From assembly GCA_951406725.2 (NCBI GenBank), contig OX597815.1:173042001-173106000 (forward strand): a stretch of 64,000 nt of DNA, given 5' to 3'. Of this stretch, positions 3,087 through 54,034 are shown piece by piece. Origin of the DNA: Octopus vulgaris (lineage: Eukaryota). A program made the position numbers and the translations under genes. The number at the start of each line of letters is the position of its first letter. The first letter of the stretch is position 1. The notes under the pieces are model-generated. The model was not told where the DNA came from, did no database searches, and saw only the letters and a list, made by a program, of their open reading frames with translations.

Positions 3087-4336
3087 GATGGGGGTTGGAC
3101 AAAATAATGGAAACACCTAGCATTATATTTTTGAAATATCTATAAAACCATCGAAAGCTTGTTTATTTTTATGTTTTTTATTTATTATTAGTGTTGCTTA
3201 ATATGTTTTGCTAAAATTTCTGTTTGTTTTCAGATATTATCAGAAAAAGGTAATTAGAATTCATTAAAATGACAGATCTATCAGACTTTCAAAGAGGTCA
3301 AATTGTTGGTGCTCATATGGCAGGCGCTAGCATAATAAAAACAGCTAAAATGTTTGATGTATCAAGAAGTACTGTGTCAAAAGTAATGACAGCCTTTGAG
3401 AGTGAGGGAAAAACCTCCTTGTCGAAACAAAATCTGGAAGAAAACCAAAACTTTCAGATAGGGACCGTCGGACTCTTGTGCAAATTGTTAGAAAGCGTCA
3501 CAGTGCAGCTCCCAAAATTACTGCAGAGCTTAATGATCATTTCGACAACCCAGTTGCCACAAAAACTGTTCACCAGGAGCTGCAATCAGAAAACCATTAC
3601 TTTCAAACACAAACATTGCAAAGCATTTAGAGTGGAGTAAAAACCTACAGAATTGGTCCCTAGAGCAGTGGCAGAATCTTATTTTCTCAGACAAGTCATC
3701 CTTTATCTTATTTCCGACCACCAGCCGAGTATACATGTGGAGACAGCCAAAAGAAGAATTTGACCCAGACTACCTTCTTCTAACTGTTAAACATGGAGGA
3801 GGATCTGTGCTGATATGGGGGATTATATCTTGGAAATCTGCTGGCCCAATGGATTCCCTTCATGGCAGAATTAATAGTCAAGACTATTCAAGCAGTTTAT
3901 CTTATCAAATTCATCCTATGGTTGCGGAACTGTTTTTTTTTTTTGGGGGGGGGGGCAATCTTTCGTTGGTGTTACTGAATGGCACAAGGAACATTCTAGT
4001 GAAGTTGAACATCTTATCTGGCTACCACATTCCCCAGATCCCAATATTATTGAACATTTATCATGCATTTTAGAAAAACAAGTTTATTTAACATTTATCG
4101 TGCGTTTTAGAAAAACAAGTAAGGTGTTGATATCTTCCACCAACATCACTACAAGAACTGGAGACTGTTTTAGCTGAAGAAAAGAGAAAAATTTCTTTGG
4201 AAACAATTCAAACTTTGTATGAGTCATACCTTGTAAAATTCAAGCTGTAATTACTGCCAAAAGTGGTCCTACCCCATATTAAGATATATTTGTTTGAAAT
4301 TTTAAGGTGTTTCCATTATTTTGTCCAACTCCTGTG
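3087..4336 (+). mobile_element. Tc1/mariner DNA transposon with defective transposase
   Basis: TIR core gttggacaaaataatggaaacacct (3094-3118) with its inverse at 4305-4329, in a TA microsatellite. Broken transposase: HTH MTDLSDFQRGQIVGA..., FSDKS, TVKHGGGSVLIWG, PHSPDPNIIEHL. Confidence 0.92.
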
Positions 4337-5650: not shown

Positions 5651-5664
5651 TATCCCACTGGATA

Positions 5665-6580
5665 ATCATCATCAACATTTAATGTCCCTTTTTCATGCTG
5701 ACATGTGATGGATGGCTTGAGAGGAACTTGAAAGGCCAGGGGCCACACCAGGTTCTACAGTCTATTTCGGCTTGGTTTCTACGGCTGGATGCACTTTCTA
5801 ATGTCAAACACTTTTCAGAGTGTACTGAGTGCTTTTTATATGACTCCATCACTTGTGCTTTTTATATGACACCAGCACCATTCCTTTTTATATGGCACAA
5901 GCACCCACACCAATGCTTTTTACATGACACCTTGGTTTTAGGATCTCAACTCTGTTGTGGTGGGTGGGTCTTCTTGGGTACAACAATGCACTACATATGG
6001 TCCTTTGTCATCTTTGTAAGACTTGGTGTTTTGAGATCAGCCATTAACACTTTGTCCCATGTCTTCTTAGGTCTCCCTCTTCTAAAACTTCCTTCCACTA
6101 TAAGTGATCAACACTTCCTCATCCATCTGTATTACATGGCCAAACTAGTGCAGTCTTGTCTGTTGCTCATTGCATATAATTCCTCTTATGCCCAACTTCT
6201 CTCTCAATACATCATTGCTCTGTCACACATGCACACTGACATTGCCCATCCAGTGGAGTATACCAACTTTGTTCCTTTCCAGCCTTCATATAACCTCTAC
6301 ATTCAGGGCCCATATCTCACTATCAGGCAACATAGTAGTTTGTATGAATGTATAATACAAACTTCTTTTTACTTGGAGAGAGAGACCTTTGATTGCTGAC
6401 AGAGGTAAAAGCTCTCTGAATTTTCTCCAATCTACTCTAATTCTAGCAATTACACACTCTGTACAACCTCCTCTATTGCTAATTAGGTCACCCCGGTAAC
6501 AAAAGTTATCTACAACTTCCAGAGAGCCACTGGGATATTTGGGGAAATCAGTTTCTTGCATATCAGTGGTCTTTATATTT
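5665..6580 (-). mobile_element. 5'-truncated RTE LINE copy (same family as 27570-32603)
   Basis: SLEVVDNFCYRGDLISNRGGCTECVIARIRVDWRKFRELLPL, the shared 3' module and a (gat)n tail. Confidence 0.9.
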
Positions 6581-7163: not shown

Positions 7164-7730
7164 GTAAAACATTTATTTCTATATTCTCAAAATTTTGTTT
7201 GATTTTTTTAGAGATTTTTAAAAATATATTTCAAATTTATTTCTTATATAGAGTCATTATAAAATCCTTGATCAAATTTAAATTTGAAGTTTTTTTTAAT
7301 TTTTAAAACCTAGTGTCTATAATATGATTGAAATAAATTGTAAAGAATACTTAGGAGCCTGATACATCTATTTTGTCATCATCTATTAAAAAATTTTATT
7401 GTTTAATTTTTAAAAATTTAATAGTCACTTGAAATTTATTCTATGGGGATATGCTGATGATTACTATTTATTCAATGAAATTTTGTCCTATGGATGACAT
7501 GCATGCTTGGATAACTAATGTGATTTACAGTATAACTGAAAATCAACTGATGTGTATGTATGTATGTATGTATGTATGTGTATATATATGTGTGTGTGTA
7601 TGCAACAAAATATGTAAACAACCTTTTTTGTGTTTTGGATATTTAAGTAATATTTTGAATTTAGTATAGCCATGAAGACAGCAGAAAAACTGGGTATTTT
7701 ACCCTTATATGATGGAAAAAGTTGTTTGCA

Positions 7731-7800
7731 GGCAGCCCTGGGACTCAAACCCACACCTCTCAGATACCGGCTGAGTACTTTATCATTAATCTAAACTGCC
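7731..7800 (-). pseudogene. tRNA-like sequence (GGT anticodon), probably a pseudogene or repeat head
   Basis: Acceptor stem GGCAGTT/GGCTGCC, anticodon stem CTCAG/CTGAG with loop CCGGTAT, T arm TGGG-TTTGAGT-CCCA. Degenerate D arm and non-canonical T loop. Confidence 0.55.
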
Positions 7801-8359
7801 TCCTGATAACAATTTCCATCAAATTAAACCCTAAATAGATATTTTATTTGAAATGCAACAACATATGTAAACAAACTTTTTTTGTTTTTGGAAGCATTGA
7901 ATGTGTATTGTATTATACAGACAAGAAAGTAATATTTTGAACACAGTATAGCCGTGAAAACAGCAGAAAGATTGGGTATTCTACATATGTTGTTGCATTT
8001 CAAATAAGCTATGTATTTAGACTTTCTTATCTGTATGATATGATATATATATGTATTGTGATGGTGAACATATTAACAACCTACAATTTTGAGAATAAAT
8101 TTGTTTAAAAATGTAATAAACTTTCATTTATCCTTTTCACAGATCAGTTCTACCACACATAAAATTCAAGCTATTCAAATTAAAAATTTTACAATGATTT
8201 TATAATGATAATGTATTTAAACTAGAAATAGTTGATTTACTTTAAAATCAAAATTTGCTTTCAATTTATTAAATCAATATATGCATAAAATTAAAACATT
8301 TCTTTTTACTATAAACTATTTTTATGCATTGAATATATTTTGTTTGCTTCTTTGTCATT

Positions 8360-8910
8360 ATCATCATTATTTAATGTCCACTTTCCATATTGGCATGGGC
8401 TAGATGGTGTGACTGGAGCTGGTAAGCCAGAGAGCTGTACCAAGTTCCAGTATGATTTGGTATGGTTTCTATGGCTGGATTCCCTGCCTAATGCCAACCA
8501 CTTTGGGAGTGTAATGGGTGCTTTTTACATGCCACTGGCGCAGGTGCTATTTACATGACACTAGTTAAGGCCACAGCTAAGATTTCACGGATGCTATTTA
8601 CATGACACTGGCAACAGTCACAACCTCCATGAGATTCAACACTCAAAGATCATGTTTCACCACCTCATCCAATGTCTTCTGAGTCTATCTCTTCCATAGG
8701 TTTGCTTCACAGTTTGAGATCAGCATTTCTTGACACAGCTGTCCTCGTCCATACACCTCACATGACCACAGCAGGGCAGTCATCTCTCTTGCACACCACA
8801 TTTGATGCCTCTTATGCCCAGTTCTACTCTCAAGACATGTTCTGTTGCTCATGTATACTGACACTGCACATCCAGTGAAGCAGACTAACTTCATTTCTTT
8901 CAAGCTTTTG
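8360..8910 (-). mobile_element. RTE LINE 3' fragment
   Basis: Shared 3' module (gttggcattaggcagggaatccagccatagaaac) plus degenerate C-terminal ORF sequence. Confidence 0.85.
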
Positions 8911-12904: not shown

Positions 12905-13715
12905 TATGCAAGAGAGACGACTGCGCTGGTATGGTCATGTAGTGAGAATGGGTGAGGATAGCTGTGATAAAGTGTCACACCCTGTGAGGGAATCTGTGGA
13001 AGAGGTAGACCCAGGAAGACCTGAGATGAGGTGTTGAAGCACAACCTTCAAACATTAGGCCTCACCGAGGCAATGACTAGTGACTGAGACCTTTGGAAAT
13101 ATGCTGTGCTTGAGAAGACCTGGCAAGCCAAGTGAGACTATAACCTGTGACCTATGCCAGGGGTGTAACCAGCCCACTTATGCATACCTTTCCCTCATTG
13201 GACACTAAACACACCTTGCAAAGACCTGTTGAGGCAAGTGAAAATGAAATCAAATTCAATGACTGCCCCACATGACTGGTGTCCATGCTAGTGGAGTGCT
13301 AAGAGCATCATCCGAGCATGATTGTTGCTAGAGCAGCTGACTGGCTTCCATGCAGGTGGCACATAAAAAGCACCATTCGAGCATAGTCATTACCAGCATC
13401 ACCTTACTGGCACGTGAAAAGATTACTCGAGCAAGATCGTTGCCAGTGCCGCTGGACTGGCTCCTGTGTAGGTGGCATGTAAAAAACACCATTTGAGTGT
13501 GGCCATTGCCAGTACCACCTGACTGGCCCTCGTGCTGGTGGCACGTAAAAGCACTCACTACACTCTCGGAGTGGTTGGCGTAAGGAAGGGCATCCAGCTG
13601 TAGAAACTCTGCTAGATCAGATTGGAGCTTGGGGCAGGCATCTGGTTCGCCAGTCCTCAGTCAAATCATCTGACCCATGCTAGTATGGAAAGCGGACGTT
13701 AAACGATGATGATGA
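12905..13715 (+). mobile_element. RTE LINE 3' fragment with 3' UTR tandem units and (gat)n tail
   Basis: ERRLRWYGHVVRM...GRGRPRKT, about 4 tandem units, the terminal module and ggacgttaaacgatgatgatg. Confidence 0.9.
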
Positions 13716-14448
13716 CACTACTGATGCAATGTCATCATCTCCAACTGGACATTAGATGAAAAGAACTCTAGCTGTGACCATTGTGTCTCTTTCTCCAGTC
13801 AGAGCACAGTGCACTGAGAACCACATCATCCATTCTTGTTTTTGTTTTTTTTCTGCCTGTGATATGAATATGCAATTGCTGTCAACAACATGACATCACA
13901 CTATGACTTGGATCCTTTCATGGCAGACTATACCCAGGATATTTTTGTCTGTGTTGTAGTTGTTACTTCACCCCAAATCAGTCAGCTGAACAAACCAATG
14001 GTTAAAAAGCTTTCCAGTTTTGACCATTCTTTTTTTTTTTTCTATTAGCATACTATTCAGTTCCTAGAATCTCTATGTACATCCCATTCTATCTTCTGTT
14101 ACCAACTCCAGTCCACCATCTCAATTTTTATCCAGTAAATGTATATTTTTGTACAATCCTTCCTTTCCAGATAAATGAGCAAAACTTACAAATTGCAGAG
14201 TGAAAACTTTTCCACATGGTGATTTACATATATCAAATAAATTTAAGCTTTGTAAAATTTCAGTTAAAGAATTAAGACTAGGTCCACATTTAAGTAACAA
14301 ATGAGATCATAATTCAACATCTTATTTCAGTAATGGTTCTTGTCACAATTCATTTACACTTTTCCCTAATTCTTTCAAATATCAGTTTTTGTGTGTGATT
14401 AATGGAGAAAGTAGTCTTTGTGTGTGGTAAATGTGTGGGTACAATAAG

Positions 14449-27086: not shown

Positions 27087-28754
27087 CTGAAAGATGAAGA
27101 GAATTTTTTTATATATGAATTTACAATTTACTTTTCATGACCTTCAAGCCGACAGATAATTACAAAAAATAATTCAATACTATTTGTTTCAGGATATTTT
27201 TTTTGATCTTTCAAATAATTATTTAACACACTTTTTACTGGTCTCAATGCAAGTTTTGTAATGATCTGTTGTAGGTTTCAGTATGTTGAGACAATCTATA
27301 ACAAAAGATTTATTTAATTTCCATGCCCCACCACCAACACTTTTTTACAGCTGACATTGCAATCACACACACACACTATATTCACAGTGAGGAATATAGT
27401 CCTAAGAACTAAGTCTGGTCGCTGCAACATTTGCAGATTCATCATAAGGAAAGAAGTTAAAACAGGAAAAAAACAAAAAAAAACAAAAAGAGAATATAGT
27501 GAAAAGTATATGATAAAGTTGGAAGGTGGAGAAAGGGATAACAAAAAGAAATGATTAATGCTGAACATAAATCTTCGCCATTACTGTCCTCAATCAAAAC
27601 TTCTGTCTTTCTCCAACTCACTTCTTCCGGTCAGTCTACTTAAATATCACCTTGTGCTCCTCTTCTACTCATTCTTTCTTCGACCACAGCGATGTCCAAA
27701 GCAAGCTAAGAATTCTCATTTCATTTCTTCCGATCCTCATACTACATACATACATTTGCCGCTAACGCTTAAATGTTTGAATCTATTCACTAATCTGCTT
27801 GTTCTTTTCTTTCATGAGCTAAATGTTGATACGATTCCCCACAAAATATAATCCTTTAATTTTTTTAACCCCCCCGGTATGAAGTTAATTCGTTCGTTTC
27901 TCTATGTTACCTTCTTCAACCCCGATTGCTTAATTCTTCTCACTATTGTCCCCAATCAAAATCTTCGCCATTCGCGGTGCGCCCGCCCTTTCCCACCCCC
28001 ACCACCAATACCGGAGAACACTCTGTTTACACCATCTACACCAGATATCCCTTCTCCCACCACCATTACATGTATCTATTCCTCCAACCCCTCCTCCTCA
28101 ATATGCTATTTCACTATGTATTACCCCTACCCCTGCCCCTCTCCCCCAAGATAGAAGCAGCTAGCGCCGCAGCTCATCAACCGTCCCACTTAACCAGTTA
28201 TCTTACGTTTCCTCCTGTTTTGAAATCTGTCACTGCCTCAACCGGCTATCTCCTTCCAGTCCCCTCCCCCACTCGTGATATCCTACGTTTTATTTCCTAC
28301 GTTTCATTCTGTCTAGAACCTGCCACCAACCCTACCTGTCATCGTTTCTCCTTACCCCAACCCTCCCTACTGGTGCTCCCCTATATTACCTACACAATCC
28401 CCCCCCCCACTTTCTCTCCCTCTCTCTCTCTTCTCTCTGCTGGAACCCTTCCCCGCCGCAATGCAACCAAAAATTTTTCTCTCGGCTGGAACCCCACCCC
28501 CAACACTAGAATATCCATGTTTCTGCTACGTTGCTTAAACTACATTACTCAGTGACCATAATGCTTGCTTAGAATGCTACTAACACCTAGAATTTCAGTA
28601 TTTCTGCCACAGAGCTTACATCTACATCATCAATGACCTTAATGTTTATGCTTACAACGCTGCTGACACCAGCTCCTGCCTACGGCAGGGGCCACAACCT
28701 TATCATGCCTAAATGCTTGAATGTTGTCAGGTTGGAAGAGAGATCAGATGAAAA

Positions 28755-31700
28755 ATGCCTAAAAAACGATCACCACCACAACAACCCTCTTCTTTTCAGG
28801 CGCTGAATTGCTCCCCTCCTCCCCACATCTCCTTCCCAGTTTTCAGAGTTGACACTGTCAATGTTGGTACATTGAAAGGTAGGTCTAGTGAGATTGTAGA
28901 GATGCTTGAGAGAAGACGGGTTGATGTATGCTGCATACAAGAGGTAAGATGGAGAGGTGCTTCAGCTAGGGTCCTCACGGGCAAGGCACATAGGTATAAA
29001 GTCTTCTGGCAAGGTAACATGGATGGTGTAGGGGGTGTAGGCATTCTCCTTGCGGAGAAATGGGTGGATAAGGTCATAGAGGTTGTCAGGGTTTGCGATA
29101 GAGTGCTTAAGCTCAGGTTAGTCCTACAGAGTGGCACAGCTATGATTATCTCTGCCTATGCCCCACAAGCGGGACTATCAAATGATCAGAAGGACCACTT
29201 TTATGATACCCTTCTACAGGCTACCTCAAAGACTAGTGGCAAGGACCTCATCTTTGTGGGTGGAGACTTTAATGGGCATGTTGGACAGGAATCAAGTATC
29301 TTCACTGGGGTACACAGTGGCCATGGTATTGGCACCAGAAATGATGAGGGAACTAGACTACTGAAATTCTGTGATGCATGTAACCTTTTAATCTGCAACA
29401 CTAACTTCAGGAAGCCTGACTGCCACCTTATAACCTATCAGTCAGGAGACTCCGCTAGCCAAATAGACTTCATCCTCACCAGACAGCAGGATGCAGGGTT
29501 GCTCTTAAATACAAAGACCCTCCCAGGTGAAGAATGTATCCCTCGGCATAGGCTAATCATCAGTGACTTTAAGCTTGAGGCCAGAAGGACTCCAAGAAAC
29601 AAACCAATCCAGAAAAGAAGGATTTGGAAGCTAAAGAACACTTCACATGGTCAGAGATTTAGGGACATCCTCATCAAGAAATTTGATGAGAGGGAGGAGG
29701 AGCTTCAGACGTCGAACATAGAAGGTAGCTGGGAATTCCTACGGGACAGCTTGCTGAGTGCCACAGACCAAGTCTGTGGATGGTGCAAAGTCCCTTCCAG
29801 ACCTAGAGTTACGTGGTGGTGGAATAGTGCAGTAGACAAAGCCATTAGTGCAAAGAGACAGGCCTGGAAAGCCTGGAGGGATGGGGGTAGCAGGGAACTG
29901 TACCAGGTAGCCAAAAGGGAGGCTGGGCGGCAGGTATACATAGCCAAAGATGTAGCAGAAAAGAAGAAGTTTGCCAATGTCCAGCGACGTGAGGACCAAA
30001 GAGCTGAGGTATTTCGGATTACCAGACAGTGTGTGAGAGAAAATAGTGATGTTACAGGAGAGAAATGTGTCCGCATGGATGATGGGGCACTTGCTTTTAA
30101 TGTTGGTGAAAAGAAAGAGGCTTGGAGAAGCCATTATGAAAGACTGCTGAATGAGGAGAATGAATGGGAGGAGGAGAGCCTGCCAAATGTTGACCCAGTA
30201 GAGGGACCAGCTATCTGAATAGAGAGCTCCCTTGTAGTTAAGGCAATTAAGGATATGAAACCAGGTAAAGCCCCCGGCCCATCAGGAATCACTGCTGAGA
30301 TGCTTAAAACAGCTGGCTACGTGGGCTATGGCCTAGTCACCCGCATTGTAAACCAGGTAGTTCATAATGGAGTCATACCCAATGACTGGCGTAGCAGCAC
30401 CATAGTCAACTGCTACAAGGGTAAGAGTGATGCTCTAGATAGAAATAACTACAGGGGTATTAAACTGTTGGATCAGGTGATGAAGGTCACAGAGAGGGTC
30501 ATAACCCATCTCATTAGGGAGAGAATTTGCTTAGATGAGATGCAGTTCGGTTTTGTGCCGGGTAGAAGCACCACTGATGCTATATTATTCCTGGTCCGAC
30601 AACTACAGGAGAAGTACCTAGCTAAAGATAAACCCCTCTACATAGCTTTTGTGGACTTGGAGAAAGCCTTTGACAGGGTTCCCCGATCCCTTATCTGGTG
30701 GTCGAAATGGAAACTGGAGATTGACGAATGGCTAATAAGGGCTGTACAGGCTCTATACAGAGAGGCTGTCAGTAAGGTTAGGATTGGCAACGAATATAGT
30801 GAAGAATTCCGGGTAGAAGTAAGTGTACACCAAGGCTCAGCGCTCAGTCCCCTTTTATTCATCATAGTCCTCCAGGCAATAATAGAGGAATTCAAAACAG
30901 GATGCCCCTGGGAGCTCCTCTATGCTGATGACCTGGCTCTCATAGCAGAATCACTACCGGAACTAGAAAAGAAATTTCGGGTGTGGAAGCAAGGGTTAGA
31001 ATCAAAGGGCCTTAGAGTAAATGTAGCAAAGACCAAAGTTATAGTAAGCAGAAAGGCGAACTCAGCACACACCCCATCGGGCAGGTGGCGCTGCTCGATC
31101 TGTAGGAAAGGTGTAGGTAGAAACTCCATAAGATGCACCCAATGTAAGCTATGGACGCATAAGAGGTGCAGCAACATCAAAGGGAAATTAACTGATAAGA
31201 TAGCTTTCATGTGCGGCAGATGCACAGGGACAATAGACACCACAGACACTCAGAAAACAGATTCCATCACACTCCAGGGGAGAAACTAGAAGTAGTTGAT
31301 AGTTTCCGCTACCTGGGTGACCAAGTTAGTAGTGGAGGTGGATGCTCAGAGAGTATCACCACTAGAATACGAATAGCCTGGGCAAAGTTCAGAAAGCTCC
31401 TACCCCTACTGGCGACAAAGGGTCTCTCGCTCAGAGTGAAAGGTAGGTTGTATGATGCATGTGTGCGAACTGCCATGTTTCACGGTAGTGAAACATGGGC
31501 TGTGACTGCAGAGGACATGCGTAGACTTGAAAGAAATTAAGCTAGTATGATCCGCTGGATGTGTAATGTCAGTGTGCATGCACGACAGAGTGTAAGCACC
31601 CTGAGAGAAATGCTGGACATAAGAAGCATCAGATGTGGTGTGCAAGAGCGACGCTTGCGATGGTATGGTCATGTACTGCGGATGGATGAGGAGAGATGTG

Positions 31701-31891
31701 TGAAGAAGTGCCACTCCCAAACAGTTGAAGGTATCAGGGGGAGAGGTAGACCCAGGAAGACATGGGATGAGGTAGTCAAGCATGACCTCAGAGCGTTGGG
31801 CTTCACTGAGGCAATGGCGAAGGACCGAGATCTCTGGAGATATGCTGTGACTGCAAAGACCCGGGCTGCTTCCTGCACCAGTTCCGCATAG
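28755..31891 (+). pseudogene. RTE polyprotein (endonuclease/reverse transcriptase) with three lesions
   Basis: ORF pieces 28755-30218, 30255-31289, 31211-31540 and 31547-31891 join into one ~1040-aa protein. The TGA at 30216 is CGA in the copy at ~39692. Confidence 0.92.
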
Positions 31892-32010
31892 CCCCTGCCC
31901 ATTCAAAGTACCCTGGATTCCAGAACGTCCCGCTGTGCTTGAGGAGACCTGTTGAGTCATGAACATGAACATCGAAATAAAAATCAATGGAAATACTAGT
32001 TGTGATACCT

Positions 32011-32433
32011 GTGCCGGTGGCACATAAAAAGCACCATCCTAACGTGGCCGTTGCCAGCGCCGCCTCGACTGGCTTCTGTGCCGGTAGCACATAAAAAGCG
32101 CCATCCGAACGTGGCCGTTGCCAGCGCCGCCTCAACTGGCTTCCGTGCCAGTAGCACATAAAAAGCACCATCCGAACGTGGCCGATGCAGCGCCGCCTCG
32201 ACTGGCTTGTGTGCCAGTGGTACATAAAAAGCACCATCCGAACGTGGCCGATGCCAGCGCTGCCTCGACTGGCTCCAGTGCCGGTGGTACATAAAAAGCA
32301 CCTCCTGAACGTGGCCGTTGTCAGCGCCGCCTTGGCTGGCTTCCATGCCGGTGGCACGTTAAAAGCTCCAACCGATTGTGGCCGATGCCGGACCCCCCCT
32401 GGCACCTGTGCAGGTGGCACGTAAAAAGCACCC
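32011..32433 (+). repeat. Tandem array of 63-67-bp structured units in the LINE 3' UTR (6 full plus 1 partial)
   Basis: Units start at 32011, 32078, 32145, 32211, 32278, 32345 and 32408. Consensus gtgccggtggcacataaaaagcaccatccgaacgtggccgttgccag-N11-ctggcttc. Confidence 0.95.
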
Positions 32434-32975
32434 ACTACACTCGCGGAGTGGTTGGCGTTAGGAAGGGCATCCAGCTGTAGAAACTCTGCCAGATCAGACT
32501 GGAGCCTGGTGCAGCCCCTGGCTTCCCAGACCCCGGTTGAACTGTCCAACCCGTGCTAGCGCGGAAAACGGACGTTAAACGATGATGATGATGATGATGA
32601 TGATAACAGACAGGGGAGGAGTCAACGATAGGAGAAGCCTATTCTAAGAGTACTGAGATAGGTAGATTTAATTCTGTGTCTGAATGCAATAGAAGGAGTG
32701 AAGGCGATGTCTAATTTTAAATGTATTTTCCATGAGCCCAATATACTTCTTTTTCTATACCATCTGCTGGTGTTATTTTTCCTGAGTGCGTAAATGCTTT
32801 TGTGATACATTTGCCATTAAATGGACAAAAATGTGGCATATATGCTGCCTGCTCAACACAAGATGTCATACTGCATAGGTGACAACTGCAATTACTAAGA
32901 TAAAATACATTACAAAGAATCAGTGCAGAGAGAAAAAACAACTATTTTAAATAACAATCAGAAAATAAAACCTAC

Positions 32976-39035: not shown

Positions 39036-41958
39036 TATCGCGACTTCAGGATCAGAGCTAAATGGTTGCCCAGAAGAAGACCAGCTTGGAGGAGAAGGGT
39101 CTGGAAGCTTAAAGATCCTGCAAATGGACAGAGATTTAGAGACATACTACTCGAAGCCTCTGACGAAATAGAAGGGGATATAGCTTCACTTAATGTGGAA
39201 GACAACTGGAGATTCCTACGGGACAATCTGCTGACAGCCACTGACCAGATCTGTGGATGGAGCAAAGTACCATCTCGACCCAGAGTTACATGGTGGTGGA
39301 ACACGGTGGTTGACGGGGCTATTAGACAAAAGAGACAGGCTTGGAAGGACTGGAAGAACGGTGGTAGCAGGGAATTGTATCAGACAGCCAAAAGGGAAGC
39401 TAGGAGACAGGTTTATTTAGCCAGAGGGGAAGCGGATAAGAAAAAATTTGCCAATGTTCTGAGCCGTGAGGATGAAAGACTTGAGGTATTTCGTGTTGCA
39501 AGACAGTGTGTGAGAGAGAATCGTGATGTGGTAGGAGAGAAGTGTGTTCGCATGGATGATGGTTCACTTGCGCTAAATGAGGATGCAAAGAGAGAGGTTT
39601 GGAGATGCCACTATGAAAGTTTGCTGAATAAAGAAAATGAATGGGATAAAGAGAGTCTGCCAAATGTTGACCCAACAGAGGGACCAGCTATCCGAGTTGA
39701 TAGTTCCGTGGTAGCTAAGGCAATTAGAAGCATGAAGACAGGGAAAGCCCCAGGCCCATCAGGAATTACTGCAGAGATGCTCAAAATATCTGGCAGTGTC
39801 GGCTATAACCTAGTCACCCGTATAGTCAACCAGGTGATACACGAAGGAGTCATACCCAGCATACTAGTCAACTGCTACAAAGGTAAAGGTGATGCCCTGG
39901 ATACAAATAATTACAGAGGTATCAAGCTGTTGGATCAGGTAATGAAGGTTACGGAGAGGGTCATAGCCCAACTAATTAGAGAGAGAGTTAGTTTAGATGA
40001 GATGCAGTTTGGGTTTGTCCCAGGGAAAAGCACCACTGATGCTATATTCCTGGTAAGGCAGCTGCAGGAGAAATACCTAGCCAAGGATAAGCCCCTGTAC
40101 CTGGCTTTCGTTGACATGGAGAAAGCCTTTGATAGGGTCCCCCGATCCCTCATCTGGTGGTCAATGAGGAAACTAGGGATAGATGAATGGCTGGTGAGGG
40201 CTGTGCAAGCCATGTACAGAGATGCCGTAAGTAAGGTTAGAGTTGGCAACATGTACACAGAAGAATTCAAAGTAGAGGTTGGGGTCCACCAGGGTTCAGT
40301 ACTCAGCCCCCTCCTATTTATCATAGTCCTCCAGGCAATAACGGAGGAATTCAAGACAGGTTGCCCCTGGGAGCTCCTTCTATGCTGACGACCTCGCTCT
40401 AATCGCTGAGTCACTATCAGAACTGGAGGAGAAGTTCCAGGTGTGGAAGGAGGGTTTAGAATCGAGGGGCCTTAGAGTCAACCTAGCTAAAACCAAAGTA
40501 CTAATAAGTAGAAAGGTAGAAAACCCACAAATATCCTCAGGAAGATGGCCCTGCTCGATCTGTAGAAAAGGTGTAGGTAGAAACTCTATAAGATGTACCC
40601 AGTGTAAGCTATGGACACATAAGAGGTGCAGCAATGTCAAAGGTAGGCTAACTGGGAAGATAGTTTTTGTATGTGGCAGGTGCTCTGGAGCATTGACCTC
40701 CGAAAATCTGCAGAAAACAACTTCTGTCACTTTCCGGGGGAAAAACTAGAAGTAGTTGATAGCTTCCGCTATCTAGGTGACCAAGTCAGTAGTGGGGGTG
40801 GGTGCGCTGAAAGTGTAACTGCTAAAATAAGAATAGCCTGGGCAAAGTTTAGGGAGCTCTTACCTCTGCTGGTGACTAAAGGCCTCTCGCTCAGAGTAAA
40901 AGGCAGACTGTATGGTGCATGTGTACGAACAGCTATGCTACATGGCAGTGAAACATGGGCCGTGACTGCTGAGGACATGCGTAAGCTCGTGAGTAACGAA
41001 GCCAGTATGCTCCGATGGATGTGTAATGTCAGTGTACTTACTCGACAGAGCGTTAGTACCTTGAGAGAAATGTTGTACCTAAGAAGCATCAGTTGTTGTG
41101 TGCAAGAGAGACGATTGCGCTGGTATGGTCATGTGGCGAGAATGGATGAAGATAGGTGTGTGAGAAAGTGCCAATCCCTAGCAGTTGAGGGAACCCGTGG
41201 AAGAGGTAGACCCAGGAAAACCTGGGACGAGGTGGTGAAGCACGACCTTCGGACGTTAGGTCTCACCATGGAAATGACTAGAGACCGAGACCTATGGAAG
41301 TATGCTGTGCGTGAGAAGACCCGGCAAGACTAGTGAAGCCATAATCCGTGGCCCCTACCTGGGACGTAGTCAGTCCACCTGTGCATACCTTCCTTCTTGT
41401 GACACTTGTGAAGACCTGTTGAGGCAAGTGAGAATCGAATCGTATCGAATCAAATCGAACCAAATCAAAATAGATGAACATCAATGGAATTTGTATCCTT
41501 GTGGTACCAGTGCCGGTGGCACATAAGAAAACCATCCGAACGTGACCGTAGCCAGTACCGCAATGACTGGCCTCCGTGCTGAGGGCACGTAACAAACACC
41601 ATCCGAGCGTGGCCGTCCGCCAGCCTCGTCTGGCACCTGTGTCGGTGACACATAAGAAAACACCATCCGAGCGTGGCCGTCTGCCAGCCTCGTCTGGCAC
41701 CTGTGTCGGTGGCACATAAAAAACACCATCCGAGCGTGGCCGTCTGCCAGCCTCGTCTGGCACCTGTGTCGGTGGCACATAAAATCACCCACTACACTCT
41801 CGGAATGGTTGGCGTTAGGAAGGGCATCCAGCTGTAGAAACACTGCCACATCTGACTGGCCTGGTGCAGCCTTCGGGCTTCCCAGACCCCAGTTGAACCG
41901 TCCAACCCATGCTAGCATGGAAAGCGGACGTTAAACGATGATGATGATGATGATGATG

Positions 41959-41960
<2 letters not shown>
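39036..41960 (+). mobile_element. 5'-truncated RTE LINE, second subfamily (RT + PHD + thumb + 3' array)
   Basis: ORF pieces 39066-40388, 40441-40749 and 40671-41333 are collinear with the 28755 copy. Units at 41510, 41576, 41639, 41703 and 41766; (gat)n tail. Confidence 0.95.
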
Positions 41961-51865: not shown

Positions 51866-53657
51866 GTATGTTTAAGTTTCTAAATTTTGAAATACTTTCT
51901 TAGTGAAGCCATTGTGAAAACATTTTGACCAAATCCAATAGCTTTTAATGGTTTATAAAGTTTTTTTTTTTTTTGACCAATTTTCAGAGATTTATTGAAG
52001 AAGAAAAAAAATTAAGCTATTAAATATTTGATTAACAATATTCTCAGTTTTGACTGCATTTTTTCAATATTAATTATATGAAAACATTTGTTTTCAACAT
52101 TAGAATGCATTAGATTACATAAAAAAAAAAAAATTAGCCAGTTTATCTTGTGATAAATATTTTTAATTTTAAATTTATTTAACTTTATTTCAAGTAAGTC
52201 TATAAATATATTGATGTTTGTCAGAAATTATTTCTGAAAAATATGAGTAAATCCTCCAATTATATTTTTTACATCATTAAAATCTCAAATATACTTGTGA
52301 TAAAATTCCTTCTTCACTATGTTAAAAAAATTTTTTTCTTTTTTAGTGTTAGCTTAATTTTTAAAAAATGTAAATAACCAATTATTTTTTGGAAATTCAT
52401 AGAAATAGAATCATGGTAAACTGAACAATGGAAATTTGGCTTCTGTAGGATTTTCATGTTAAAGTATTAGAAAACTAAATTGTAATTCAATTACATTTTT
52501 TCTTTTTTTGAGATAAGAATTTTGATGCTGTTATAAGCTTAGATAATTAAAGGTTTTCATTATGTTATAATTAGTTAATCAGGAACCATAGTAAAATAAG
52601 AAATATGTAACTAATTCAGATGCTTGAATGATTTTAATGAATTACACAATTTTTTTCATAGCTTTGAATAAAAGTATTTTTAAAATATTACTCTAAAAGT
52701 TGCCCTAGGACTTTATATGAAATAAAGATACTTTTTCATTAAAAAAAAACATCCAAAAGTGAGATTAAAGAAGTAAACTTATAAAAAAATGCTAGTAAAA
52801 CCTCTCAAAAAGAGGTGAGCTTCTCCAAGTAGCAATGTTTTCTTTCATTGTTTATCATGGATGTTGTTTTGCAGTGTATATTGTGCTTTATCACTTTCCA
52901 CACAGATGAGATATCGCACACACATAACAGATAAGTATCTTTCTTTTTTTTTTTTACGTTTTGCTTGTTTTCTGCGTTTTTATACTTTTCCATAGAAAAG
53001 CATAAAATTGCAAAATATAAAACTAATACACAACTTATACAAAAATATATAAACTTATACAAATGCACATGGTTCACAAAAATGATATTCACTGAATTAA
53101 CAATCATACATAAGAAATAAAGTAGACTATATTTGCAAAAGCAAAATCAATCAGAAGGGCACAATATGTGTATATACTTGACAAAATTTCCAGAGATATC
53201 ACCTCTTGTGTTGTGTTAGTGTTTATATTTCAGGTGTATTTACAACTTACATCAGAAGAAATTTATATATTGGTGACAACAGATTAAAGTTGTAAATCAT
53301 CTGAATATGTAGGTTAAATTTGTACCACACCTATTGGATGTGAATCCGGAATTTTAAAAAAATATTTTTTTAATTCATCATGCATATACAGTTTATGTAC
53401 ACTATAGACATTAATTATATTTCATGAATGATTGTTTAGTTGTGTAATAAATACTTCAGTTTTTTCTTGTTACACTTTCAATTATAATTTGAGAAAATAT
53501 TTGGCTCTAATTTTCTTCTGGATATCCTCTATTCAGGCAAAATTTTCTTGTATTTAGAAAATATTAGGTAGAGTACTATGTAGATATTTACAAACTCTGC
53601 TCCACTTTTTTTTATTCATAGACAAATGTACACAAATTTATTTATTTCTTATTCTAG

Positions 53658-54034
53658 GTATGATGTCTGTTGGACTTCAGAATTCTACCTATCCAAACCT
53701 CATGCAGATGAGTTCTGCACCGTTGCCCCAGTATCAGATGTATGGAGCTGCTGCAGTACAACAGATGCAAGCAATGAATATGTCAGGAGCAAACTATAGC
53801 CAATTGCCCTACTCACAGCAACACAAATACTTAGACAAAGACCTAAAGTATTCAGATGTCTATATGATGTCAGCAGCAAATGCTTCTAACATGCCAATGG
53901 TTGGAAACCCAATGACATGCATGCAAGTGAAGAACAACCCCAGTGCTCCAATGTACACCTACAACAGCCAGGGTATGCCTGTTGCTTATTCATCAGCCAG
54001 TAAGAGTAGCAACTTGTCAGGTACTCGTAAGTAA
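53658..54034 (+). CDS. Nested unrecognised gene, coding exon 2 (Met/Gln/Tyr/Ser-rich); total 199 aa
   Basis: Acceptor ttattctag, phase 1 compatible; 124 open codons of the same biased composition. The 3' end could instead splice at gtaagt (54027). Confidence 0.8.

Follow-up and report, generated by a model that had tools for sequence, protein, structure and literature searches.

The described elements closest in architecture to the one analyzed here are the RTE LINEs, with their bipartite elements and SINEs (Kojima 2018, PMC5786205), which share with it a single APE-RT ORF and a microsatellite tail. In the bipartite elements, a conserved 5′-UTR domain, twice repeated in some, is joined to the 3′ tail, whereas in the LINE described below a domain of this 5′-UTR type lies in the 3′ UTR of an autonomous element and is multiplied there; the supplement text of that report does not contain the word GGCATCC, and its available parts propose no structure. 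Vertebrate R2 elements of the A clade (PMC12180492) offer a second parallel: close to the 3′ end of their non-LTR RNA, a stem comes after a small pseudoknot, which provides a model of how recognition might work. R2, however, is a site-specific RLE element with a single motif of about 65 nt that abuts the 3′ end, whereas the present module ends about 100 nt before the tail repeat, and the likeness noted is one of geometry. Twister ribozymes (RF03160) are found at the 5′ ends of RTE-type elements such as Perere-3 (PMC8501958), and a twister also fills the slot before one of the hairpins described below in the locus L254. The words TGCCGGT and ATAAAA shared by twisters and the module are superficial likenesses: the module gives no twister match, lacks P1, P2 and the loop residues, is located at the 3′ end, and occurs in copies without a common starting phase. 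In Octopus, RTE-2_OV (PMC9115989) is likewise an RTE-clade LINE with an ORF of about 1100 aa, but it is described with a C2H2 finger and a mostly microsatellite 3′ UTR, whereas the present LINE has a PHD-like finger and a structured 3′ UTR; the two are set apart by description only.

For the conserved SINE domains (V/Vhc, Meta, Deu/Nin and Ceph), the words of the module are absent from the searchable supplements of PMC4758252, PMC4824008 and PMC5786205, although a word interrupted by alignment gaps would escape such a search; in EbuSINE2, one word of the Deu domain is similar to the core. Families are described by class only in the available parts of a 2026 repeat annotation (PMC13282606). Our search of the literature and Rfam found no description of the array, the module or the PHD insertion; Repbase and Dfam, outside this search, probably hold consensus sequences of these families.

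Here, we analyze a window of 64,000 nt of the Octopus vulgaris genome (contig OX597815.1, positions 173,042,001 to 173,106,000, forward strand). A first-pass annotation of its sequence had described a variable-number array of covarying structured RNA units in a LINE 3′ UTR and had read it as a selected, multimerized RNA, of particular interest in combination with an RT bearing a PHD finger.

The LINE and its 3′ array

The principal copy in the window (copy A) opens with a pyrimidine-rich 5′ UTR at 27560..28751 (+), a stretch common to other genomic copies, with an approximate start and probably 5′-truncated, which lacks the pseudoknot module. It is followed by a decayed single ORF at 28752..31891 (+), comprising an APE endonuclease, an RT, a PHD-like finger late in the RT region and a C-terminal region, with frameshifts near 30218 and 31289 and matches to PF03372, PF14529, PF00078 and, at its cut-off, PF00628. 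Six internal units at 32010..32406 (+), five of 66–67 nt and one of 63 nt, each consist of a core (hairpin or pseudoknot), a linker and a second hairpin, GCCAG/CTGGC. The last, partial unit of the array (32010–32432) is the core only, at 32407..32432 (+); this terminal core has a homologue in L178, and its predicted parts are S1 (TGTGC/GCACG), a 1-nt loop, S2 (GGTG/CACC) and a 7-nt A-rich linker. Next come hairpin H2 at 32433..32453 (+), CACTC/GAGTG with a variable loop, in which an A-U pair corresponds to C-G in L178, and hairpin H3 at 32454..32478 (+), bearing the near-invariant word GGAAGGGCATCC, which is common to the 5′ UTRs of related LINEs and to non-autonomous elements of other animals. 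A spacer and the LINE 3′ tail, with the end GGACGTTAAAC and a (GAT)n microsatellite, complete the copy at 32479..32604 (+).

Two further copies carry related arrays. The copy at 41509..41960 (+), of young subfamily B, has four internal units, a terminal module and a tail (array 41509–41789, four internal units and one terminal), with an inherited broken pseudoknot stem in unit 2 and an inherited U-A compensation in unit 3; this subfamily is very young, all 40 scored places being 100% identical over 146 nt. In the copy at 13284..13716 (+), of older subfamily C, about four decayed units (array 13284–13555), one of them shortened by a deletion between two TGGCAC words, precede the terminal module and tail. 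TRF reported a period of 67 with 6.4 copies and 84% matches at 32009–32432, a period of 63 at 41584–41784, and the decayed array at 13313–13527. In an 864-kb sample (the window plus 80 stretches picked regardless of repeat), a unit HMM gave 117 matches, 114 of them chained with the 3′ end of a LINE, whereas shuffled DNA gave none; the units therefore belong to a mobile element rather than to a free satellite, and the array, its coordinates and the unit geometry were as first described. Unit number is indeed variable, from 0 to 45 internal units per element, with truncation lowering the counts in some subfamilies. The same sample contains 98 LINE 3′ ends, about 113 per Mb, which extrapolates to roughly 3 × 10^5 in the 2.8-Gb genome.

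The element encodes the APE endonuclease and then the RT in one ORF, has no ORF1, ends in a 3′ microsatellite, (GAT)n, and is frequently 5′-truncated. We take it to belong to the RTE clade, a name assigned from this anatomy, as its homologues are unnamed. Young copies of a subfamily other than B have a non-coding 5′ UTR and, in 15 of the 20 stretches sampled, open frames of 1051–1123 aa; many near-identical copies with such frames occur (L373–L388), so the LINE was probably active recently. Tandem repetition is found in both UTRs and at the ORF end. A variable 19-nt tandem repeat at the ORF end (L373–L388) alters the C-terminus, with the stop in or near its first unit. The youngest subfamily (L378:1–1360, L379, L520, L521) has a 5′ array of pyrimidine-rich monomers of about 347 nt, like L1 promoter monomers, with eight overlapping matches per 3-kb upstream stretch, as well as a 26-nt repeat; its 5′ boundaries lie inside the monomer array, beside (AT)n. 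Across families, the core recurs with periods of 26 nt, 62–67 nt and about 100 nt.

Elsewhere in the window, old copies at 5662–5931 (−) and 8355–8620 (−) contain either the pseudoknot core alone, repeated every 26 nt, or a degenerate copy of it that resembles an ancestor of the unit's second hairpin. A weak tRNA match at 7730–7800 (−) is perhaps a SINE head, a Q/M/Y-rich open frame at 53558–54034 (+) may be a host exon, and a frame at 3537–4073 (+) looks like a Tc1/mariner transposase remnant.

The PHD-like finger group is wide (3511 matches), the named members coming from Hydractinia and Mercenaria. The finger in the RT region (window 30219–31289; P0002, L393–L398) has a PHD family in about 83 of 120 listed homologues, and several PHD-bearing homologues occur in bacterial MAG records that likely reflect contamination with animal DNA. 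Four PHD-RT relatives could be read to the 3′ end, and in all four the tail is short and no array is present. Since these relatives are widespread and 4/4 lack the array, the finger and the array are not coupled, contrary to the special link proposed at first.

Inherited and private change in the internal units

Near-complete, de-duplicated 3′ modules (n = 391) were collected, most of them by similarity searches, so that the sample is not random. We also gathered 831 internal units, 730 of which (the first seven per array) were clustered, giving 18 types present at five or more loci.

Covariation among the units stood in part. Among 14 units (13 from the window and one from L373), pairs with double changes were no more frequent than in shuffles (121 of 500 reach the observed value), and the pseudoknot stem was 80% paired with no double change. 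The earlier remark that the GGTG/CACC pairing is broken in some units is accurate: only 3/7 cores of the focal array (32010–32432) keep all four pairs, and the stem is complete in 2/6 of its internal units. The single loop base also varies as freely as had been stated, taking C, A or T in units and G as well in terminal copies, and thus all four letters. Two of the stem changes listed at first are inherited. The GTGT/ACAC variant occurs at 29 loci and its U-G intermediate in 30, giving in subfamily B an S1 path from C-G through U-G to U-A with 29–30 loci per state; TGCCGG/CTGGCA leads to GCCGG/CCGGC in the youngest subfamily, the path in the second hairpin running from A-U through G-U to G-C. 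The other changes did not hold up as inherited compensation. GTCAGC/GCTGGC is private (0/124 units of that type), and the outer T-A/C-G pair falls on CpGs, where in one C-G type T-A was seen 3 times against 3.9 expected from independent decay. Neutral single changes produce a G-U pair in 138 of 575 cases. The middle segment, thought to be conserved, is not one word but several (GTGGCCG, GTGATCG, GAGGTCG). On this sequence comparison, only two of the listed changes are inherited non-CpG compensation paths, and the rest fit neutral decay.

Among the 18 internal types, stem columns differ in 4–7% of types compared with 20–30% for linker and loop columns (Mann-Whitney p = 5e-4, distinct alleles, 23 versus 24 columns), a contrast that is inflated by the choice of units for their likeness to the core, by the kinship of the types and by loose alignment of the loops. 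Rates of private substitution are flat across columns (0.018–0.040). The lower variation of stems among inherited types suggests constraint, and because stems are kept better than loops, the internal units are either not wholly neutral or refreshed from the terminal copy.

A selected multimer, in which several structured units bind the ORF protein or a host RNA-binding protein with avidity, making the RNA more stable or transposition more frequent, would account for this contrast (3- to 7-fold lower variation in stem columns, against flat private rates), for the location of both stepwise compensations in internal units, and for multiplication of the pseudoknot segment with three different periods. 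Yet S2 is broken in 8 of the 18 inherited types (intact in 10/18, with S1 intact in 15/18), the youngest subfamily with an intact ORF has a single internal unit with both stems broken, one old subfamily has no internal units in 35/35 copies, and 35 of the 44 units in the largest array carry a change that breaks both stems; the biases just named inflate the stem contrast in addition. Selection for multimerization is thus unsupported by the broken S2 types, the lone broken unit of the youngest subfamily and the mostly broken 44-unit array, and we consider a selected multimer unlikely. What stands of the proposed selected RNA is a structured and apparently undescribed terminal module. As judged from these comparisons, the internal copies appear dispensable, and the selected object is the last copy with the two hairpins that follow it (~70 nt), not the multimer.

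The terminal module and its 5′-UTR relatives

Across eight subfamilies, the ~70-nt module (core, H2 and H3) is 93–100% identical at non-CpG columns, compared with 50–90% at fourfold-degenerate sites of the ORF end (22 subfamily pairs). Variable non-CpG columns number 3/20 in the core, 2/17 in H2 and 0/21 in H3, against 19/48 in the following spacer. The spacer, at 0.76–0.96 identity, also exceeds silent sites, so selection may look stronger than it is if lineages have exchanged 3′ ends; within the same copies, the module is better conserved than both the flanking spacer and the array. These values place the terminal module under strong constraint.

The predicted fold of the module comprises a small pseudoknot and, after it, two hairpins. 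In the eight terminal modules, 93% of cells are paired and four pairs show double changes, which 3 of 500 shuffles equal. The geometry of an H-type pseudoknot, with interleaved S1 and S2, a short L1 and an A-rich L3, is possible in all terminal copies, and S2 is 97% paired, its departures lying on CpG sites of old subfamilies. Compensatory change is present in S1, as two double changes in L178 and the path of subfamily B. No alignment scored contains a double change in the four core pairs of S2; outside them, S2 shows G-U variants and a possible fifth pair, read by eye, that is C-G in family Z and U-A in L178. Since the four core pairs of S2 lack a double change, a simple hairpin followed downstream by a conserved word may also fit; a loop base that takes all four letters favors a pseudoknot or open loop over the triloop hairpin preferred by energy minimization. 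In the older family Z, one junction pair has shifted from S1 to S2 and the outer pair is A-T. Folding energies are unremarkable (z from −1.6 to +1.2), and folding predicts the first hairpin in only 5 of 8 pieces.

The H3 pattern was found at no fewer than 122 metagenome loci, most of which, among the matches listed, look like non-autonomous animal elements. It lies 219–356 nt upstream of the APE start in L178, L179, L207 and L224, and about 210 nt before it, in the 5′ UTR, in L394, where the ORF leads directly into a short tail resembling the last 45 nt of the focal LINE; in L246 and L184, H3 is joined to a similar tail. In L178, a locus of a related LINE in another animal, the 5′ UTR has a core of the same length 45 nt before H3 (47 nt in the focal LINE). 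This core differs at 10 of 26 positions, six of them in stems, while all nine pairs are kept, with two double changes (P = 0.0013 under random placement), and H2 is compensated there too. A core before H3 in this geometry was present in 1 of 123 real flanks; among 18,450 shuffled flanks, strict criteria found it in 2 and loose criteria in 11. Deep covariation hence rests on one homologue, since among the matches listed 1 of 123 adequately flanked metagenome H3 matches has the pseudoknot upstream.

The unit HMM gave nothing better than E 3.7 on the 122 metagenome loci, and a loose pseudoknot descriptor matched 7 of 126 H3 matches, six of which are not homologous by eye. Viral contigs contained no H3 pattern, and protein scans of viral contigs gave no confirmed match; scans of genome contigs returned none at first and then 14 loci, nine of which were examined. 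In other loci, different segments occupy the slot before H3: L224 and L193 have a candidate pseudoknot of another A-rich kind and then a GTCGTAA-GGCGAC hairpin, and L185, L219, L244 and L280 have another structured-looking segment, with no ribozyme match among those scanned. In family Z (L500–L519, L117:1100–1530), which has a pyrimidine-rich non-coding upstream region and the same tail, the whole module is duplicated with a period of about 100 nt; it is a candidate non-autonomous partner, and the sequence preceding its module could form a long-range stem.

In L520 and L521, the module is missing from the LINE's own 5′ UTR all the way to its 5′ boundary; of five stretches taken farther upstream, two have monomer arrays lacking the module and three have no monomers. 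The element's own GGAAGGGCATCC motif is absent before 56 APE starts: in 3/56 the word occurs within 900 nt, each time from a separate neighboring copy. A loose twister word in L524 is flanking DNA. As H3 lies in the 5′ UTRs of relatives and the LINE's own 5′ UTR lacks the module, a move of the 5′-UTR domain to the 3′ UTR through capture of a partner's end would be the simplest history.

Explanations and significance

Our preferred explanation, to which we assign a probability of about 0.5, is that the module is a cis-acting recognition module of an RTE LINE and that the array arose as a by-product of duplication; the by-product part taken separately is probable, and binding of the module by the element's own ORF protein, argued by analogy, is put forward tentatively. 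The module would be an old 5′-UTR domain of PHD-bearing RTE LINEs. The LINE would have captured, by template switching, the 3′ end of a non-autonomous partner consisting of the 5′-UTR piece and the tail, and pyrimidine-rich monomers in tandem would have taken the place of its own 5′ UTR; both bipartite derivatives of RTE elements and the exchange of tails have been described (PMC5786205). The pseudoknot segment would then have been duplicated several times independently, in periods of 26 nt, 62–67 nt and ~100 nt; slippage of the RT at recurring GGCAC words is the probable cause, and further expansion at the DNA level may have followed in some inserted copies. In the last and weakest step, the terminal module would owe its retention to binding by the ORF protein, either as the RNP assembles or in target-primed reverse transcription. 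Proteins of stringent LINEs bind 3′ tail stem-loops, as in L2 (PMC4176376), vertebrate R2 binds a 3′-UTR pseudoknot-hinge-stem (PMC12180492), and RTE 5′-UTR pieces persist in bipartite SINEs (PMC5786205). A 3′ role of the module is not required in the clade, since relatives transpose with a short tail alone at the 3′ end.

The boldest rival, because a twister fills the same slot, is that the module is a self-cleaving ribozyme or 5′–3′ nuclease block of the RTE 5′-end slot which, once in the 3′ UTR, frees short 3′ RNAs mobilized by the LINE protein. In L254, a type-P1 twister (E 4e-7, below the gathering score) immediately precedes the same H3 word, and another RTE-like family of the same genome begins with one: type-P1 twisters, also below the gathering score, are found at its apparent 5′ ends (L497:1501–1555, L498:1501–1556). 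The A-rich linker and compact fold are reminiscent of the P1/A-minor part of pistol ribozymes. Against these stand the Rfam scans, in which no family matches the array or the module. At the gathering threshold, the whole window gave one tRNA alone; at E ≤ 10, 31850–32620 gave three chance matches and no twister (RF03160); and at E ≤ 0.5, 11 loci gave the twisters of L497 and L498 and microsatellite-driven miRNA matches only. Twister was not found at E ≤ 0.5 on the module in L373, L378, L500 and L503, although the same scans do find L254, L497 and L498. The pistol, HDV-like, hammerhead, hatchet, twister-sister and viral xrRNA models had no match, the only matches being the tRNA and weak miRNA and snoRNA chance matches, and HDV-, pistol- and twister-like folds sought by eye against the consensus folds had helices missing. 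A fixed starting phase was not found in the small sample of 29 hand-called 5′ truncations, which spread over the unit with at most three per phase and 16 in the 26-nt core (p = 0.07); the sample was drawn from 50 in-array breakpoints by removing by hand those with upstream element sequence, at locus ends or in terminal cores. In L178, moreover, 300 nt or more of upstream contig sequence precede the core, which is not evidently located at the end of an element. Self-cleavage or a nuclease block, raised in the first-pass annotation, thus receives no support from Rfam or truncation phases and is improbable, and its fullest form, a novel kind of RNA-processing element that can trade places with twister in the RTE 5′-UTR slot and that, moved and multiplied in the 3′ UTR, would cut short mobile 3′ RNAs out of LINE transcripts at some 300,000 sites, is a longer shot still.

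Two other explanations dispense with a function of the RNA fold. The whole could be neutral, a palindromic minisatellite carried along with the tail, the likeness of the modules being kept by recent exchange of 3′ ends between LINE lineages. Most of the changes cited as structural fit CpG or C-to-T decay, the window units lack covariation beyond shuffles, the element is repeat-prone in general, and its spacer is fairly conserved too; but H3 is kept across distant animals, stems are compensated in L178, and the module is more conserved than the spacer and the array on its two sides in the same copies, so we regard neutrality as unlikely. Alternatively, it might be the DNA of the module that acts, as part of a promoter or enhancer in the RTE 5′ UTR, multimerized in the manner of promoter monomers. 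Its 5′-UTR origin and the 5′ monomer arrays of the same LINE would agree with such a role, and PMC5786205 speculates that conserved RTE 5′-UTR domains bind transcription regulators; the compensated stems and the register shift, however, point to an RNA fold, and the core sequence itself has changed at 10 of 26 positions in L178, which leaves a DNA-level role improbable.

Under the preferred recognition-module reading, RTE elements contain a cis-acting RNA module that is apparently undescribed and that, in this LINE, was likely transferred to the 3′ UTR and duplicated. Structured UTR signals of non-LTR retrotransposons and conserved RTE 5′-UTR domains are known kinds; a pseudoknot module that has been relocated and multiplied is apparently new. 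Neither a selected multimer nor the PHD finger gave evidence of a new system. Part of a 5′ UTR is retained in bipartite SINEs derived from RTE elements (PMC5786205), and current engineering of RTE-1 for inserting genes uses templates that carry the two UTRs at their ends (PMC13708176). The finding gives a short predicted fold for such a 5′-UTR piece and bears on how RTE proteins choose their RNA, with natural compensated variants, young open-ORF copies and a natural experiment that places the piece at the 3′ end as usable material. At roughly 3 × 10^5 copies, the module would be among the commonest structured RNA motifs in the transcripts of this genome.
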